Positions 39,493 to 52,060 of a stretch of 64,000 nucleotides of DNA are shown piece by piece. The position numbers were made by a program, and so were the translations under genes. Origin of the DNA: Candidatus Kaiserbacteria bacterium. Lineage in GTDB: Bacteria; Patescibacteriota; Minisyncoccia; Phycocordibacterales; Phycocordibacteraceae. The DNA is taken from positions 340,562-404,561 of the forward strand of contig OY969413.1 in the NCBI GenBank assembly GCA_963699165.1. Reading direction: 5' to 3'. Below the pieces are notes generated by a model. It saw only the letters and a program-made list of their open reading frames with translations. It ran no database searches and was not told the origin of the DNA. Numbering within the stretch: position 1 is the first letter of the stretch; every line of letters starts with the position of its first letter.

Positions 39493-41109
39493 GTGTATAG
39501 TGTCCCCATGACGACCGCCAAAGAAATCATTGGCGCAATGGCGCATCCTTCGCCGGAGGATGTCGCTCTCGTTGAAAAGGCCTACGAATACTCGAAAAAA
39601 GCGCACGAGGGACAGACGCGCTATTCGGGCGAGCCGTATTTCATCCATCCGGCCGCTACCGCCAAAATCCTCGCCGAATACGGGATGGACGCAACGACCA
39701 TCGCGGCAGGCCTTCTGCACGATGCGGTTGAAGACGCGCGCGTCTCGCGCGAAGACCTCGAAAAAGAATTCGGGTCCGAATTGCTTTTCATCATCGACGG
39801 GGTAACGAAACTCGGCACGCACAAATACCGCGGCGCGGAACGCCACGCGGAGAGTTTGCGGCGGCTGTTGGTCGCGACCGCAAGCGACATTCGCGTGCTC
39901 ATCGTGAAGCTCGCCGACCGTTACCACAACATGCAGACGCTTGAGCATGTGCCGGAACATAAACGCCGCCGCATCGCGCTCGAAACGCTTGAGATTTACG
40001 CGCCGATAGCCGACCGGCTCGGCATGGGCAGGATGAAAAACGGTCTCGAGGACCTTGCATTCCCTTTTATCGACTCCGATGCGAGCAGCCATGTGTCCGA
40101 GGTTCGGAAATTAAAAAAACAGGAAACGGAAACCGGCCTTGCGAAAGTGCAAAAGGAAATCGGACGCGAGCTTGCGAAAAAAGGAATGCGCTCTTTCCAT
40201 ACCGACATCCGCATGAAAGGACTATGGAGTTTGCATAAAAAACTGGAGCGCAAACATGACGACATCAGCTTGATTCACGACATTGCGGCGCTCCGCATCA
40301 TCGTGCCGAGCATCGAGGATTGCTATGCGACCCTCGGCGTCGTGCACGCGCTCTACAAACCGCTGCCCGGAGAGTTTAAGGACTACATCGCTTTTCCGAA
40401 ACCGAACGGCTACCAGTCGCTTCACACGACCGTCGTCACGCCGGAGACCGGCATCGTCGAAATACAAATCCGCACGGAAGACATGCACCGCGACGCGCAG
40501 TTCGGCATCGCTTCGCACATGTCATACAAGCAATTGGGGAAAGACATCGGGAAGCTGGATAAGGAAGTCCAAAAAAATAAATTTTCTTCTCTGTCGTTTC
40601 CGTGGGTCCGTTCGCTCATTCCTTCCCTTATGCGCATGTCGCAAAAAGAGATCGGTGAAAAAGAACCGATGAAGATTCCGTTATGGCTCGCCGACCTCGC
40701 GAAAGCGCATGCGGAAATCGCCGGCTCGCAAGAATTCGTCGAAGGACTCAAGGAGGATTTTTTTTCGCACCGCGTGTTCGTGTTTACGCCGCGCGGCGAC
40801 GTCATCGACTTGCCGTCGCAATCGACGCCGATTGATTTTGCGTATGCGATACACAGCGATCTCGGCGACCATTTGCAGGGCGCGAAAGTGAACGGGAAAA
40901 TGGTCTCGTTTGATACGATATTGAACAACGGCGATGTCGTTGAAATCATCCGGCGCGATGCCGCACATCCGTCGCCGAAATGGCTCGAAACCGCGCGCAC
41001 GTCGCTTGCGCGAAGGCACATCAAAAATACGCTCGGCATCGTCACGAAGGCGACCCGGGCTTCCCGTCCGCCGCGCAACAAACGCGGAGACAAATCGGTT
41101 AAACCGTAA
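39493..41109 (+). CDS. Bifunctional (p)ppGpp synthetase/hydrolase (Rel/SpoT, short form).
   Basis: HD hydrolase HDAVED, synthetase domain, TGS domain. Confidence 0.85.
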   Translation: MYSVPMTTAKEIIGAMAHPSPEDVALVEKAYEYSKKAHEGQTRYSGEPYFIHPAATAKILAEYGMDATTIAAGLLHDAVEDARVSREDLEKEFGSELLFIIDGVTKLGTHKYRGAERHAESLRRLLVATASDIRVLIVKLADRYHNMQTLEHVPEHKRRRIALETLEIYAPIADRLGMGRMKNGLEDLAFPFIDSDASSHVSEVRKLKKQETETGLAKVQKEIGRELAKKGMRSFHTDIRMKGLWSLHKKLERKHDDISLIHDIAALRIIVPSIEDCYATLGVVHALYKPLPGEFKDYIAFPKPNGYQSLHTTVVTPETGIVEIQIRTEDMHRDAQFGIASHMSYKQLGKDIGKLDKEVQKNKFSSLSFPWVRSLIPSLMRMSQKEIGEKEPMKIPLWLADLAKAHAEIAGSQEFVEGLKEDFFSHRVFVFTPRGDVIDLPSQSTPIDFAYAIHSDLGDHLQGAKVNGKMVSFDTILNNGDVVEIIRRDAAHPSPKWLETARTSLARRHIKNTLGIVTKATRASRPPRNKRGDKSVKP

Positions 41110-42118
41110 ATCCGGTTATTGAATACAAGCCATCGTCGTCCGCGGCTTCCTCGGGCGCTGCCGGCGCAATCGGATCTTCGTGTGATAGTTGCGTTGTATT
41201 TGGGAAAACGGGCGGCGCATCCGTTTGCTCCGTTTGCGCAACCGCTTCGGCGTTGGACGCATGCGGCGCCGAAATTTTCTGCTCCGCGGCAAGCGCACTG
41301 ACCAGCTGATTCAAATCGTCGGGTGAGAAAAACTCAATCATGAGTCGGCCGCCTTCCGCGTTCGTTTCAATGATGACGCGCGTGCCAAGGGTTTCGGTGA
41401 GCGATTTTTCCATCTCAAGCATCTCCGGCGACTTGCGATGATGCGGCCGAACGCGCTCCTGCGCAATCGAACGGGCAATGCGCTCAGCAGTTCGCACGGG
41501 CAATTTCTTCAAAATGATTTCCTTGAAAAGCGTTTCCTGCTCTTCGGGCCGGCTTGTAAGCGCGAGCAGGGGGCGCGCGTGGCCTTCGTTTATTTCGCGC
41601 GCCACGATTGCATTTTGCATATGTTCGGGGAGCGTCAGGAGGCGCAAGCTGTTGGAAACGTATTCGCGGCTCTTGCCGATTTTTGCCGCGGTCTCCGCGT
41701 GCGAGATGCCGAATTCATCGATAAGTTTTTGCAATGCCTTTGCCCGGTCAATCGCATTCAAATCCTCGCGTTGAAGATTCTCGATAATGGCGAGTTCGAG
41801 TTTCGTGAGATTGCTTTCGCCGTGGCGGATTACGACCGGCAGCTGCTTGAGTCCGGCAATCTTGCTCGCGCGAAGTCGACGCTCGCCGGCGATGAGCTCG
41901 TACACGCTCTCGAGGCCGCCCTCCGGCTTTTCCTTTTCCGTGCGGCTGACCACCAAGGGTTGCAGCACGCCGTATTGGCGAATGCTCTCCGCGAGCGATG
42001 AAAGTCCCGCCTCGCTGAACTCTTTGCGCGGCTGATACGGATTGGGCACAATCCTGTCGATATCAATCCAAAAAACCGAGTCGTATTTTGTCGGCACGTA
42101 TCCCGCATCTTCGCTCAT
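41099..42118 (-). CDS. parB: ParB/Spo0J-like partition protein.
   Basis: ParB N-terminal box GERRLRA and an HTH. Confidence 0.8.
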   Translation of the reverse strand: MSEDAGYVPTKYDSVFWIDIDRIVPNPYQPRKEFSEAGLSSLAESIRQYGVLQPLVVSRTEKEKPEGGLESVYELIAGERRLRASKIAGLKQLPVVIRHGESNLTKLELAIIENLQREDLNAIDRAKALQKLIDEFGISHAETAAKIGKSREYVSNSLRLLTLPEHMQNAIVAREINEGHARPLLALTSRPEEQETLFKEIILKKLPVRTAERIARSIAQERVRPHHRKSPEMLEMEKSLTETLGTRVIIETNAEGGRLMIEFFSPDDLNQLVSALAAEQKISAPHASNAEAVAQTEQTDAPPVFPNTTQLSHEDPIAPAAPEEAADDDGLYSITGFTV

Positions 42119-42143: not shown

Positions 42144-43805
42144 CTACTGAGTTCTCAAGATTTGAATAACCTCCTCAAGTGAAGAACCTTGCCGTGACCT
42201 GATCAATGAGAGAATATCTTCTCGGGCAAATCCCGCAACGTGCATGTCATCAGCCGCTCGTATGGCTTCTCCAAATAGCGGGCCGGGCTTAAATCCTAAC
42301 GCGATAAGATCCCTTCCAAATAAGACCGGCGCCGGTTTGTTTTCATAAATGCCAAGTTCGGCGGCTTTTTGCAACAGCCACTTGCCGGCAGGATAGTCTA
42401 TTGGCATGAATGACTTTTCTGGTTCGTCTGGATCAACGAAAGGTCCGCGACCGCGATGATCTGCTTCAGCAACGCAGACCAAATGTCTGAGTGTTGCAGG
42501 ACTGATTCTTGTTGCCAATCGTTTAATCGCCCCATCGCTAATCCGTATCCCTCCGTGCACCTCCTCAAGATAAAATATGGTAGGCCGTAAATGCTCGACT
42601 ACTACATGTGCAATCGGAATGCGCAACGAGGCCTCAATGCCGATTTCGTGGAGAAACCGTAACGCTGGCTCAGCGCCGGCTTCTTCGTGACCTATCGATC
42701 TGACGCGGCCGTCTGTTTCTTCCGTGGTCAGCGGCTTACCAAAATCATGACAAAATGCTCCCAGCATGACAAGAAGTGCGTCGTCTCCTTTCAACTGTTC
42801 TCGTTCAATAATTTTAGCCGCCTCATCTACAACCATTAGCGTGTGCATCCATACATCGCCTTCGGGATGCCATTCCGGCTCTTGGGGTGTATTTTGCAAT
42901 TCAATGAGTTCGGGGTGCATTTCATGAAAAATGCCCCACTCCATTGCCGTTTGGAGGCCGAGCGACGGCTTTCTGGATTTTAGAAATAACTTTATCCATT
43001 CTTCCCGCAAGCGCTCTTTTGGCAAATGCTTTAACTCGCCGCGCATTTCCCGCATAATCCTTGCCGTCGTGTCGTCAACCGTTAGACCAAATCGACCTAC
43101 GAATTGCACGCCGCGCAAAACCCTTAACGGGTCATCTCGAAACCGTTCCTCATCCGTAACCCGTAAAATCCTATGTTGAATATCATGTATACCGCCGAAA
43201 TAATCGTATATTTCTCCGGTCAAGATATCTTTCGCCAAGGAATTCATTGTGAAGTCGCGTCTACGGGCCGCCTCTTTAATGCTCATAGTTGGATCGGCGC
43301 TTATAGAGAAGTCCTTATGTCCTTTGCCGGTTTTTGACTCCCGGCGAGGCAGAGATACGTCGATATCAATATTTCCGATCCTGACTTTTAGAATTCCGAA
43401 CGCGGCTCCAACTTCATTAACATCCCCGAAGGCCTTCGCGAGTTCCCTAAGTTGATCCGGCGCAACGCCGTACACTTCGACATCGAAGTCCTTTGGGGGC
43501 ATGCCGAGCAACTCATCGCGAACGGCCCCTCCAACCAAACAAGCCCTTCCTCCGATTGCTTCAACCGCTTTTGCAAACTCAACGAGCTTTGCGAAAGCGT
43601 CGGCTTCTTCGATGAAGCCGCCATCAAGAAATCGTTCTCTTTCCTTCACCGCATCGGCTCTGTGAAGAATCTTTGCTTCCCAATACTCCGGGGTTTCTTG
43701 CGCGGCATGCAATAGGTGACGGCGCCTCTCCTTCACCGGCTCGGCTTGTATCTCCGCGGCAAGTGCATTGCGATATTTCACGTGTTTTTGATTTTCAATA
43801 CCCAT
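42144..43805 (-). CDS. cca: CCA-adding tRNA nucleotidyltransferase with HD domain.
   Basis: GGAVRDELLG polymerase-beta head and HD motif. Confidence 0.8.
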   Translation of the reverse strand: MGIENQKHVKYRNALAAEIQAEPVKERRRHLLHAAQETPEYWEAKILHRADAVKERERFLDGGFIEEADAFAKLVEFAKAVEAIGGRACLVGGAVRDELLGMPPKDFDVEVYGVAPDQLRELAKAFGDVNEVGAAFGILKVRIGNIDIDVSLPRRESKTGKGHKDFSISADPTMSIKEAARRRDFTMNSLAKDILTGEIYDYFGGIHDIQHRILRVTDEERFRDDPLRVLRGVQFVGRFGLTVDDTTARIMREMRGELKHLPKERLREEWIKLFLKSRKPSLGLQTAMEWGIFHEMHPELIELQNTPQEPEWHPEGDVWMHTLMVVDEAAKIIEREQLKGDDALLVMLGAFCHDFGKPLTTEETDGRVRSIGHEEAGAEPALRFLHEIGIEASLRIPIAHVVVEHLRPTIFYLEEVHGGIRISDGAIKRLATRISPATLRHLVCVAEADHRGRGPFVDPDEPEKSFMPIDYPAGKWLLQKAAELGIYENKPAPVLFGRDLIALGFKPGPLFGEAIRAADDMHVAGFAREDILSLIRSRQGSSLEEVIQILRTQ

Positions 43806-43910: not shown

Positions 43911-43937
43911 TTGACATATCTATAAGTATGGTATAGC
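43911..43937 (+). promoter_or_regulatory. Candidate sigma70-type promoter (TTGACA, 15 nt spacer, extended -10 TGgTATAGC) driving the structured leader and tRNA-Leu.
   Basis: Read directly. Divergent from cca. Confidence 0.4.
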
Positions 43938-44221
43938 GTAATAATTCCGGCGATTTGCTGGCGCTTAAATGAGGACCTCTGATGTTGAATGCTGTTCGGG
44001 CGTGGTTAGCCCGTCCTCTTCTATGCAAGTTCGGCTTACACGGACAAATGGAGTCCGTCGTTGGGTCTAGGTTCCTAGACCCGTGCAGGAAGGAGTGGTG
44101 GGGGCCGTGTGAACGGTGCCACGTCACGATCTTCGAAATCTGAGCGTCCTCCCCCTGGATTGGTAGGCGCGAGGCGTTTCGTGTGACGCCATAGACACAA
44201 TGCAGAAGTGACACGACACTT

Positions 44222-44280
44222 CTGCTCCGTCTCGAGATGTGTGTCCCGACTGATGAGCTCGAAAGAGCGAAACGGAATGA
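44222..44280 (+). ncRNA. Candidate type III hammerhead ribozyme.
   Basis: GUC cleavage triplet (44229-44231). Stem I ucgaga/ucccga with loop ugugug. Core CUGAUGA. Stem II gcuc-GAAA-gagc. GAAAC. Stem III ACGGA:UCCGU with the conserved A15.1-U16.1 pair. Confidence 0.5.
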
Positions 44281-44315
44281 AATACGCGTAGTGATATGCT
44301 ACTCTGCAATCCAGA

Positions 44316-44397
44316 GCCGGGATGGCGGAATTGGTAGACGCAACGGATTCAAAACCCGTCGACGCAAGTCATGAGAGTTCGATTCTCTCTCCCGGCA
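44316..44397 (+). tRNA. tRNA-Leu (anticodon CAA), class II.
   Basis: GCCGGGA acceptor, D-arm, anticodon loop TTCAAAA, long variable arm, GAGAG-TTCGATT-CTCTC T-arm, TCCCGGC-A. No encoded CCA. Confidence 0.85.
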
Positions 44398-45072
44398 CAA
44401 CAGCGAGCGAAGCGAGGCGTTGTGCCGAGAAGCACGGCATCTGCATGCCGTGCGCGAGAGAATCGAATGGCTCGGCCATGTCCGAGGATCTGCGAGGACG
44501 GCGAGCCGGGGTCGAGAGCGCTTAGCGAATTGCGAATGCCTGGAGCAATCCGCTTAGCGACTCGCGGCCGATTCTCTCTCCCGGCACAACAGCGAGCGAA
44601 GCGAGGCGTTGTGCCGAGAAGCACGGCATCTGCATGCCGTGCGCGAGAGAATCGAATGGCTCGGCCATGTCCGAGGATCTGCGAGGACGGCGAGCCGGGG
44701 TCGAGAGCGCTTAGCGAATTGCGAATGCCTGGAGCAATCCGCTTAGCGACTCGCGGCCGATTCTCTCTCCCGGCACAACAGCGAGCGAAGCGAGGCGTTG
44801 TGCCGAGAAGCACGGCATCTGCATGCCGTGCGCGAGAGAATCGAATGGCTCGGCCATGTCCGAGGATCTGCGAGGACGGCGAGCCGGGGTCGAGAGCGCT
44901 TAGCGAATTGCGAATGCCTGGAGCAATCCGCTTAGCGACTCGCGGCCGATTCTCTCTCCCGGCACAACAGCGAGCGAAGCGATGCGTTGTGCCGAGAAGC
45001 ACGGCATCTGCATGCCGTGCGCGAGAGAATCGAATGGCTCGGCCATGTCCGAGGATCTGCGAGGACGGCGAG
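44381..45072 (+). repeat. Tandem array of a 189-bp unit (3 identical copies plus a 4th variant). Each unit begins with the last 20 nt of tRNA-Leu.
   Basis: Unit starts at 44381, 44570, 44759 and 44948. Each unit contains hairpins ggcacaac..gttgtgcc and gcacggcat-ctgc-atgccgtgc. It also has an inverted copy of the T-arm segment (gagagaatcgaa). Confidence 0.9.
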
Positions 45073-45197
45073 AAGGGCTCCCGGTTTGTCCAAGAGCGAA
45101 GCGATTGGTATCAAACCGCAGTCCTGTGAGGAGCGGAGAGCGCTTAGCGAAATGCGAGTCGCCGAAGGGCGCGACGCATTTCGGTTAACGACTCATA

Positions 45198-49976: not shown

Positions 49977-50047
49977 GGGCCTATAGTTTAGAGGTAAAAC
50001 AGTGGTCTCCAAAACCACCGTCCCAGGTTCGAGTCCTGGTGGGCCCG
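49977..50047 (+). tRNA. tRNA-Trp (anticodon CCA).
   Basis: GGGCCTA acceptor, anticodon loop CTCCAAA, T-arm CCAGG-TTCGAGT-CCTGG, TGGGCCC-G. Confidence 0.85.
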
Positions 50048-50093
50048 CAAATCAAAAAACTGCCTTTAGGGCGGTTTTTTGATTTGCGGGCCC
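50041..50093 (+). terminator. Perfect 20-bp inverted repeat including the tRNA-Trp 3' end; likely bidirectional terminator.
   Basis: gggcccgcaaatcaaaaaac ... gttttttgatttgcgggccc. Confidence 0.6.
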
Positions 50094-50270: not shown

Positions 50271-50425
50271 CGAGTGCGGGAGATCTATCGAGCCAGCGGG
50301 CGACGCATCGTCGTGCTGTCGAGTGCGAGATGGCGAGGCGGGCTCCCGTTTTGTCCACGAGCGAAGCGATTGGTTTACAAACCGCAGTCCTTTAGGAGTC
50401 GCGAAAATTTTCGATCGACCCAAGA

Positions 50426-50912: not shown

Positions 50913-51893
50913 TTACTTGTCCCACACAAAACCGTTCCCGAAATGGCCGTACTTTGACGTCTCGCGAAATTGCGGTTTTCGGAGTTTCAGCAGTTTGATG
51001 ATGGCATGCGGTCGCAAATCGTATCCTTTGATTTCCTCTTGTTTGCCGTCAATCGTAACAACGGCCATAAGCGGCTCGGCAACGCCAATAGCGTAGGCGA
51101 TGTGCGCATACACTTCTTTCGCTTTTCGTTTCTTCAGATAGGCAACCGCGATTTTTCGCGCGATGTATGCCCCGCTTCGGTCCACTTTCGTCGCGTCTTT
51201 TCCGGAAAAACAGCCGCCGCCAAGAGGAACATTTGGGCCGTAGTTATCGACGGCGAGTTTTCTTCCCGTGAGTCCCGTGTCCGCATTGAACCCGCCGACG
51301 AGCCACTCGCCATTCGGATTTTTCAGCCATACTTTCTCAAGCTTCAAACCTTTCGCGAGCAATGGCTCGATTTCTTTTTTGACGACTTTTACAAGCGGCG
51401 AATTTTTACCGTAGTCGGCCTTGCACACCGAAGTCAAAATCGAAATCACGTTGCCGTTATCGACCGTCACTTGCGCTTTGCCGTCGGTTGCTCCCATCGC
51501 CTTGGTGAGTTTCCGCGCAAGCACGACTTCAAGCGGCAAAAGCTCCGGCGTTTCGCTCGTCGCATACCCGACCATAATTCCCTGGTCGCCCGCGCCGTCA
51601 TTATCGACGCCATGCTGGATTTCGGGACTTTGTTCGACGACATTCACCGTAATGCCGATGCCTTCGTTGTAGCCGCACTCTTTGTACACCTGCTCTGCTA
51701 TTTTTCTGATGTTGATGCGCGCCTTCGTCGTAAGCTCGCCGGTAACCGTGATGATGCCGTGGCCGCCGAGCACTTCAATCGCCGAACGCGTATACGGGTC
51801 CTGTGCAAGACATGCGTCGAGAATTGCGTCTGAAATCTGGTCGCACACTTTATCGGGGTGGCCAATTGAAACCGATTCTGCCGTCCTAATCAT
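50913..51893 (-). CDS. metK: S-adenosylmethionine synthetase.
   Basis: GHPDK and GGGCFSGKD motifs; shorter than typical bacterial MetK. Confidence 0.85.
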   Translation of the reverse strand: MIRTAESVSIGHPDKVCDQISDAILDACLAQDPYTRSAIEVLGGHGIITVTGELTTKARINIRKIAEQVYKECGYNEGIGITVNVVEQSPEIQHGVDNDGAGDQGIMVGYATSETPELLPLEVVLARKLTKAMGATDGKAQVTVDNGNVISILTSVCKADYGKNSPLVKVVKKEIEPLLAKGLKLEKVWLKNPNGEWLVGGFNADTGLTGRKLAVDNYGPNVPLGGGCFSGKDATKVDRSGAYIARKIAVAYLKKRKAKEVYAHIAYAIGVAEPLMAVVTIDGKQEEIKGYDLRPHAIIKLLKLRKPQFRETSKYGHFGNGFVWDK

Positions 51894-51919: not shown

Positions 51920-52060
51920 CTCCTTCCGTTTAGGAAAGTGTCTTTATGTAGGAGACATTATCTTTCCCTTTCGGGATTGGATGGAGCACCTTCTTTAATT
52001 TCTTAAAGGGTTGCCGGGAGATTGTCGAGCCAATACTCTACCTCCGCTCTTGATAACGTA
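51920..52060 (-). ncRNA. SAM-I (S-box) riboswitch in the metK leader, with a terminator-like expression platform.
   Basis: Minus strand reads CGUUAUCAAGAGCGGAGGUAGAGUAUUGGCUCGACAAUCUCCCGGCAACC...AAGAAGGUGCUCCAUCCAAUCCCGAAAGGGAAAGAUAAUG. This matches the S-box consensus UUAUCAAGAG.GG.GGAGG.A.UGGCCC.A.GAA.CCCGGCAACC...GGUGC. A hairpin and U-run follow. Confidence 0.85.

Follow-up and report, generated by a model that had tools for sequence, protein, structure and literature searches.

A solitary phage-type hammerhead ribozyme upstream of a tRNA-Leu gene in a Candidatus Kaiserbacteria chromosome

The locus and its hammerhead ribozyme

The window examined is a 64,000 nt stretch of a Candidatus Kaiserbacteria contig [GenBank accession OY969413.1], and all coordinates below refer to it. 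The genes around the ribozyme are housekeeping genes, with products that include DprA, TopA, RelA/SpoT, ParB, the CCA-adding enzyme, peroxiredoxin, MiaA, MetK and SerRS. No phage or integrase genes were found near the ribozyme, and a prophage context was rejected on this ground. The parB gene (41099-42118) is followed by the gene for the CCA-adding enzyme (42144-43805, reverse strand; identified via Pfam), which is divergent from a tRNA-Leu(CAA) gene at 44316-44398 on the forward strand. The tRNA gene was predicted by ARAGORN, scores 54.5 bits with the Rfam tRNA model and does not encode the CCA. The cmscan alignment shows an A·C mismatch at the base of its anticodon stem (44342-44358), and this mismatch is common to near-identical metagenome tRNAs. 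Between the CCA-adding enzyme gene and tRNA-Leu are, in order and on the forward strand, a putative promoter (P1), a hairpin-rich non-coding leader, a 9-bp hairpin, the ribozyme and the native promoter of tRNA-Leu. A tandem array of 189-bp units begins inside the tRNA gene.

The segment at 44225-44277 on the forward strand is a complete type III hammerhead ribozyme with all of the core nucleotides present. Three helices surround the core. Stem III is open and pairs U44226-U44230 with A44272-A44276 (UCCGU/ACGGA), including the U16.1-A15.1 pair, and stems I and II each end in a loop. Stem I is formed by 44232-44237 (UCGAGA) and 44244-44249 (UCCCGA) around a UGUGUG loop, and stem II (GCUC-GAAA-GAGC, 44257-44268) pairs 44257-60 with 44265-68 and has G10.1-C11.1 as its closing pair. 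The core is made up of CUGAUGA at 44250-44256 and GAA at 44269-44271, which supply C3 U4 G5 A6 N7 G8 A9 and G12 A13 A14, together with the A15.1-U16.1 pair (A44272-U44230) and C44231 at position H17. The predicted self-cleavage site, placed from the hammerhead consensus, is between 44231 and 44232, after C17 (C44231). Hammerhead cleavage leaves a 2′,3′-cyclic phosphate on the 5′ product and a 5′-OH on the ribozyme body. One pair in stem I, A44235·C44246, is a mismatch that had been overlooked in the original prediction, which described a near-consensus type III hammerhead with all core nucleotides; that description is otherwise borne out by the sequence, the predicted fold and the family model described below.

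When the 61-nt segment is folded alone, the minimum free energy (MFE) structure is the three-stem hammerhead. A pattern combining the core with its spacing matches the window at a single site and has 0 matches in 100 shuffled sequences. With the Rfam model Hammerhead_3 (RF00008, clan CL00010), the segment scores 42.4 bits (local E = 7.9e-8) with the full model, positions 1-54, aligned. The Rfam check proposed with the original prediction thus gave an end-to-end alignment, but one below the gathering score of 48.5 bits, so that the match is seen solely under permissive filters and a scan of the window at the gathering threshold leaves the hammerhead unreported. The score is 69.0 bits (rough E ∼5e-19) under a covariance model of 92 phage homologues, from which the window copy was left out. 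This is mid-range for the family, as phage copies mostly score 60-78 bits under the same model.

The sub-threshold Rfam score might be taken to indicate a chance resemblance to the hammerhead consensus. However, the absence of the pattern from the shuffled sequences, the 69-bit score with the family-specific model and 89% identity over 63 nt to phage hammerheads, which includes part of the flanking hairpin, all stand against it. Homology to phage hammerheads effectively refutes a chance origin, the probability of which is considered negligible.

The locus was found in two other assemblies only, a Logan contig (L021) and an NCBI MAG labelled Minisyncoccia (L022). These are independent assemblies of the same species and population, and their leader and ribozyme sequences are 100% identical to those of the window, which confirms the sequence and provides no comparative signal. 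The ribozyme is the only hammerhead in the window. Circular-RNA and retrozyme-like readings were rejected, as there is a single hammerhead and the 189-bp repeat units contain none.

A phage subfamily of type III hammerheads

When the exact 24-nt core was used to search the viral collection, two phage contigs were identified that carry hammerheads of the same unusual architecture. These score 44-45 bits with RF00008, and one of the contigs has three copies located between genes. Two degenerate patterns then retrieved more than 150 viral loci as a minimum (IMG/VR loci L026-L177), and 158 type III hammerheads, 114 of them distinct, were extracted from the matches listed. Among those matches, an 18-nt stem I hairpin of 6 bp with a UGUGUG-like loop is present in 138 of 160 extracted copies, and a 12-nt stem II hairpin of 4 bp with an RAAA loop in 150 of 160. 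The subfamily defined here, the UGUGUG-loop type III hammerheads (alignment A1, model R1), is represented by 92 distinct phage copies, excluding the window. The window copy has the 18-nt stem I hairpin, the 12-nt stem II hairpin and the G16.2-C15.2 pair that characterise the subfamily, and its UGUGUG and GAAA loops are the conserved loops of the family.

In the alignment of the 92 phage copies, 95.2% of cells are paired compared with 33-46% in slid controls, and covariation in which both sides change was seen for all six pairs of stem I and three of the four pairs of stem II; as the search patterns predetermined the core and one loop, and copies were extracted only if their stems were mostly paired, the informative signal is the covariation of the stems alone. 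Stem I is 99.8% paired across the 92 members, and the window copy falls short of full pairing at A44235·C44246. BLAST comparisons with phage copies give 83-89% identity over a region of the window that begins at 44208 or 44215 and extends to 44277. The similarity takes in the entire ribozyme together with the 3′ arm of the hairpin that precedes it, and stops exactly at the 3′ end of the ribozyme. In two of the phage loci (L043 and L057) stem I is UCGGGA/UCCCGA and fully paired, indicating that the mismatch in the window arose by a single derived G to A change.

Among the matches listed, the phage copies occupy tight gaps between cistrons, at a median distance of 30 nt from the preceding stop codon and 25 nt from the following start codon, with up to six copies in a phage locus of ∼13 kb. 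The contigs that carry them are genuine phages, and the copies are in replication-gene regions that encode a Sak-like annealing protein, an exonuclease and a primase-helicase. A member of the subfamily is also found just upstream of an early gene in cultured PaP3/LUZ24-like Pseudomonas phages, where model R1 matches Clew-1/PaP3-type phages at 58.9 bits (L249:1014-1066). In annotated Pseudomonas phages the hammerhead site is either unannotated or overlaps the start codon of a 'hypothetical protein'. The PaP3 hammerhead was reported in 2011 to be active in vitro (Perreault et al., PMC3088659, Fig. S6), and the construct used may correspond to the locus detected here. The same study proposed that long phage transcripts are processed into gene-length mRNAs.

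The window copy shares all core nucleotides, the three helices, the open stem III and a full-model alignment with RF00008, yet both the window (42.4 bits, with its A·C mismatch) and its phage relatives (44-45 bits) fall below 48.5 bits. RF00008 under-scores the short loop 2 and the UGUGUG loop 1 of this subfamily. Because homologous phage copies also fall short, the shortfall reflects the model and not the motif, and a large phage subfamily is systematically overlooked when the Rfam type III model is applied at its curated threshold, as in default annotation.

Compared with the intercistronic phage hammerheads of Perreault et al. (PMC3088659), the window copy has the same 6-bp stem I with a UGUGUG-type loop and the same 4-bp stem II with a GAAA/AAAA loop, and it is homologous in sequence to the IMG/VR copies. 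It differs in being solitary, in its location on the chromosome of an ultra-small (CPR) bacterium, outside any prophage, and in its flanks, which are a non-coding leader and a tRNA promoter and not two ORFs. Its setting is a cellular housekeeping region rather than a short gap between two phage ORFs on the same strand. The description that fits it best is that of a phage hammerhead from a known subfamily, present as a single chromosomal copy.

The ribozyme is preceded by a 9-bp hairpin, GCAGAAGUG-ACACGA-CACUUCUGC, at 44202-44225 (forward strand), which has a predicted energy of -14.2 kcal/mol and abuts stem III. Its 3′ arm is the part that is homologous to the phage copies. A hairpin in this position is a general feature of the phage family. 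For 127 phage hammerheads (L026-L177, among the matches listed), the 32 nt on the 5′ side have a median MFE of -12.8 kcal/mol versus -3.0 kcal/mol for random windows, and 73% of members reach -10 kcal/mol or lower versus 4.6% of random windows from the same loci (Mann-Whitney p = 1.6e-41). A strong, GC-rich hairpin that stops 0-2 nt short of stem III is present in ∼73% of the listed phage members. On the 3′ side, the 32 nt have less structure than random windows. Individual phages often carry more than one copy of a hairpin sequence; GGUGUCUUCAAAGACAC, for example, occurs three times in L027.

Of a type III hammerhead, only ∼6 nt stay with the 5′ product after cleavage. Cleavage would then give an upstream RNA with a hairpin-protected 3′ end bearing a cyclic phosphate, and a downstream RNA in which the ribozyme forms a compact 5′-OH cap ahead of an open ribosome-binding site. 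Alternatively or in addition, the hairpin may stabilise stem III by coaxial stacking. The strong 5′ hairpin and unstructured 3′ side suggest that the upstream mRNA is provided with hairpin-protected 3′ ends, a mechanism that could be tested in cultured Pseudomonas phages. The association with a 5′ hairpin is not mentioned in the main text of PMC3088659, where 'terminator' is absent and 'hairpin' is used in other senses only.

Promoters, insertion and possible roles of the ribozyme

The native promoter of tRNA-Leu is at 44277-44305 (forward strand), and consists of a -35-like ATGAAA (44277-82), a 17-nt spacer and an extended -10 element, TGCTACTCT (44297-44305). It starts at the last base of the ribozyme, and the extended -10 ends 10 nt before the tRNA gene. 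In relatives that lack the ribozyme, an extended -10 of the form TGnTAnnnT is present in 26 of 28, compared with a background expectation of 0.017 per 28 nt, and is exactly 10 nt before the tRNA in 16 of 28. In 15 of the 26, a -35-like xTGAAA precedes the -10 hexamer by exactly 17 nt. The entire conserved promoter is retained in the window with its spacings unchanged, and the tRNA-Gln gene in the window has an extended -10 identical to that of tRNA-Leu. With an intact, conserved promoter between ribozyme and tRNA, the tRNA-Leu is most likely transcribed autonomously on its own promoter, with a predicted leader of ∼3-5 nt.

The original prediction held instead that the tRNA is transcribed from the far promoter at 43911 and that the ribozyme severs the leader, and so defines or frees the 5′ end of the pre-tRNA. 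The placement of the ribozyme 85 nt upstream of tRNA-Leu holds for the cleavage site; between the end of the ribozyme body and the tRNA there are 38 nt. The two are on the same strand, and a terminator was not found between them, so that read-through transcripts would carry both. Shedding a highly structured leader (z = -3) could aid folding of the pre-tRNA, and the theta ribozymes discussed below offer a precedent on the 3′ side. However, the ribozyme and the tRNA are separated by the intact, conserved promoter. The type III topology also keeps nearly the whole ribozyme on the 3′ product, so cleavage would not usefully shorten the tRNA leader: ∼84 nt would be left and RNase P would still be needed.

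Recurrent juxtaposition of a hammerhead and a tRNA in one transcript was not found either. None of the 158 phage copies, among the matches listed, has a tRNA within 500 nt. A metagenome scan for tRNA-Leu(CAA) of this type recovered 71 loci (453 kb). The tRNA is identical in four of these loci and ≥90% identical in about 30, and model R1 detected no hammerhead in any of the 71. A pattern for the hammerhead to tRNA-Leu arrangement (CTGATGAG-N10-CGAAAC followed after 38-68 nt by the tRNA D-arm) gave 0 matches in the viral collection. Coupling of the ribozyme to the tRNA, with definition of its 5′ leader, is thus not upheld and is considered improbable.

Theta ribozymes, which are minimal HDV-like ribozymes, lie directly 3′ of phage tRNAs in hundreds of cases and have been suggested to cleave off the 3′ trailer (Kienbeck et al. 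2024, PMC10879173). Like them, the window copy is a small self-cleaving ribozyme that adjoins a tRNA gene on the same strand, but it is of another class, is 5′ of the tRNA with a promoter between, and has an arrangement that is unique among the loci searched.

In relatives, the spacer between the parB start codon and tRNA-Leu is 36-37 nt, which reveals the ancestral arrangement. Compared with it, the window lineage has a lineage-specific insertion of ∼2.2 kb between parB and the tRNA-Leu promoter. The block consists of the CCA-adding enzyme gene, ∼420 nt of hairpin-rich DNA and, at its very edge, the hairpin and hammerhead. Synteny of the CCA-adding enzyme gene is not conserved, and its neighbours differ elsewhere. 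The closest relatives of the enzyme are from CPR/Patescibacteria MAGs. The orthologous loci of five relatives have neither synteny nor a hammerhead, and model R1 found no hammerhead in the CPR relatives of the gene.

Several minor observations were made on this region. The G+C content of the CCA-adding enzyme gene (0.46-0.51) is lower than that of the adjacent parB (0.55-0.59), consistent with later arrival of the former at this location. In one relative with a 77% identical CCA-adding enzyme (L004:1-60, reverse strand), a tRNA-Leu(GAG) is divergent from the CCA gene, and downstream of that tRNA is a match to the DUF3800-IX RNA (44.8 bits, gathering 36.8 bits) that is cut by the end of the contig. 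The parB-tRNA spacer of relatives (L183, L191, L194, L213, L230, L231, L241 and others) contains two overlapping, divergent extended -10 elements around the palindromic GCATATGC. The TGnTAnnnT on the tRNA strand would drive the tRNA, and TGCTAAAAT on the opposite strand stops ∼7 nt short of the parB ATG, so that the parB mRNA would be leaderless.

Upstream of the leader, the putative promoter P1 (43911-43939, forward strand) was read from the sequence as TTGACA (43911-16), a 17-nt spacer and TAGCGT (43934-39), and would plausibly start a transcript near 43946. A promoter at 43911 had been part of the original prediction. Its elements and spacing are plausible, but a scan for consensus promoters did not list it and returned no canonical promoter upstream. 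P1 was missed because its -10 matches at only 3 of 6 positions.

The leader itself (43946-44201, forward strand) is rich in hairpins, with an MFE z-score of -3.0 for 43946-44231. It has no match in Rfam, and was rejected as a known RNA on that ground, and no similarity was detected by blastn or tblastx against phage, CPR and tRNA-Leu loci. When leader and module were compared with annotated phages and plasmids, only the tRNA matched, and an exact search of the viral collection for a donor, using leader-hairpin patterns and patterns for the hairpin plus ribozyme, found none. A 53-codon ORF in the leader (43982-44143, forward strand) has a good Shine-Dalgarno sequence and is probably not a gene. 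Its product has no match in Pfam or PHROG and its sole match in 1.84 billion proteins is a junk repeat translation, and the leader was rejected as a gene on that basis. A 112-aa antisense ORF has no homologue either.

Most likely, the ribozyme does not process the tRNA; it either trims a non-coding transcript made upstream or is a relic. The explanation preferred here, which is given about an even chance, is that a phage-type hairpin-hammerhead was acquired horizontally and serves as a 3′ end former that uncouples the upstream transcript from the tRNA. Rightward transcription from P1 would allow the ribozyme to fold and to cleave after C44231, releasing a structured RNA of ∼286 nt with a 3′ end made up of the hairpin and UCCGUC carrying a 2′,3′-cyclic phosphate. 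The ribozyme body, with a 5′-OH end, would stay on any read-through into the tRNA unit. By forming the 3′ end of the upstream transcript the module would keep it apart from the tRNA, a job that in phages it may do between adjacent cistrons. The tRNA-Leu would be made independently from the 44277-44305 promoter and matured by RNase P. Homology to the phage copies, the hairpin, the position at the edge of the insertion, the retained tRNA promoter and the activity of the PaP3 hammerhead count in favour of this explanation. The leader, which has no recognisable function or homologue, the stem I mismatch and a P1 that is only plausible count against it.

Folding predictions bear on whether the window copy can cleave. 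In a context of ±32 nt, the hammerhead fold is 3.2 kcal/mol less favourable than the MFE structure; the family median for this cost is 1.8 kcal/mol and 86% of members are at ≤4 kcal/mol. Repair of A44235·C44246 removes the cost entirely. In a 120-nt context the MFE structure prefers a competing pairing over the hammerhead, and the alignment column pair that holds the mismatch (11/23) is never unpaired in the 92 members. Both conserved loops, stems II and III, the accessory hairpin and all 11 core nucleotides are intact. Taken together, these observations make catalytic competence somewhat more likely than not. The likelihood of a selected cellular role is considerably lower. A solitary copy that is absent from the five CCA-gene relatives and the 71 tRNA-Leu(CAA) loci does not support purifying selection in the cellular lineage.

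The main rival is that the ribozyme is a neutral relic, carried in by the recombination that placed the CCA-adding enzyme gene beside tRNA-Leu, which is not used by the cell and is starting to decay. The copy is the only one, its surroundings are housekeeping genes among which no phage or integrase gene was found, and it is located exactly at the insertion boundary; none of the relatives examined has a hammerhead, and no canonical promoter was detected upstream. The derived G to A change moreover produced the only mismatch in stem I relative to the 92 family members. However, no damage is seen in the 11 core nucleotides, either conserved loop, stems II and III or the accessory hairpin, the copy scores in the middle of the family, and the A·C mismatch is mild with a folding cost within the family range. 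Acquisition may also be recent, in which case intactness and absence from relatives discriminate little either way. A relic is regarded as a real possibility, though one held with less than even confidence.

It is unlikely that the phage module was co-opted, either to produce a ∼286-nt hairpin-capped non-coding RNA ending in a cyclic phosphate or to provide a second, ribozyme-processed route to tRNA-Leu. If true, either version would represent a domesticated self-cleaving ribozyme with a role in cellular RNA maturation in an organism with a minimal genome. To our knowledge, little has been established about what hammerheads do in bacteria, and almost every copy described so far comes from a phage or prophage. 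A lone, near-intact phage-type copy in the core chromosome of a CPR bacterium with a reduced genome would amount to a datable transfer of a ribozyme from phage to host. Its position at a rearrangement boundary, next to tRNA-related genes, makes it a simple test case for the functional retention of such modules.

The 189-bp array and other small elements

The tandem array at 44380-45072 (forward strand) comprises 3.7 units of 189 bp that are ∼100% identical and begins inside the T-loop of tRNA-Leu. It belongs to the context of the ribozyme and not to the ribozyme itself, and may be the more unusual feature of the locus. Each unit is made up of the 3′ third of tRNA-Leu (CGAUUCUCUCUCCCGGCA) and a trailer of ∼170 nt that folds back on it, with a very stable predicted three-way junction fold (z = -6.2). 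As 189 bp corresponds to 63 codons, long spurious ORFs are created on both strands (44371-45129 forward and 44349-45002 reverse). Copy number differs among assemblies of the same species, with two units fewer in the MAG L022. No match to known ribozyme or RNA families, including those in Rfam, was found for the array.

A 12-mer in the trailer (window 44378-44467) is exactly complementary to the 3′ half of the T-loop/T-stem of tRNA-Leu, and a second segment of the trailer is complementary to the 3′ strand of the acceptor stem. Together these pairings produce the three-way junction, which competes with the cloverleaf. This 'anti-T-arm' 12-mer is also found downstream of tRNA-Leu in 4-5 of 28 relatives (L191, L221, L235 and L218), with one compensatory change in which U/G in the T-loop is matched by A/C in the trailer.

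At the end of the array is a 77-nt hairpin-forming element (45058-45133), which has an 87% identical paralogue at 50324-50398. The paralogue is about 280 nt downstream of tRNA-Trp (49977-50048), a gene that is followed by ∼500 nt of hairpin-rich non-coding DNA. The two copies are small repeated intergenic elements located downstream of tRNAs. A SAM-I riboswitch (51955-52059, reverse strand; 57.4 bits) is upstream of the MetK gene (50913-51893, reverse strand).
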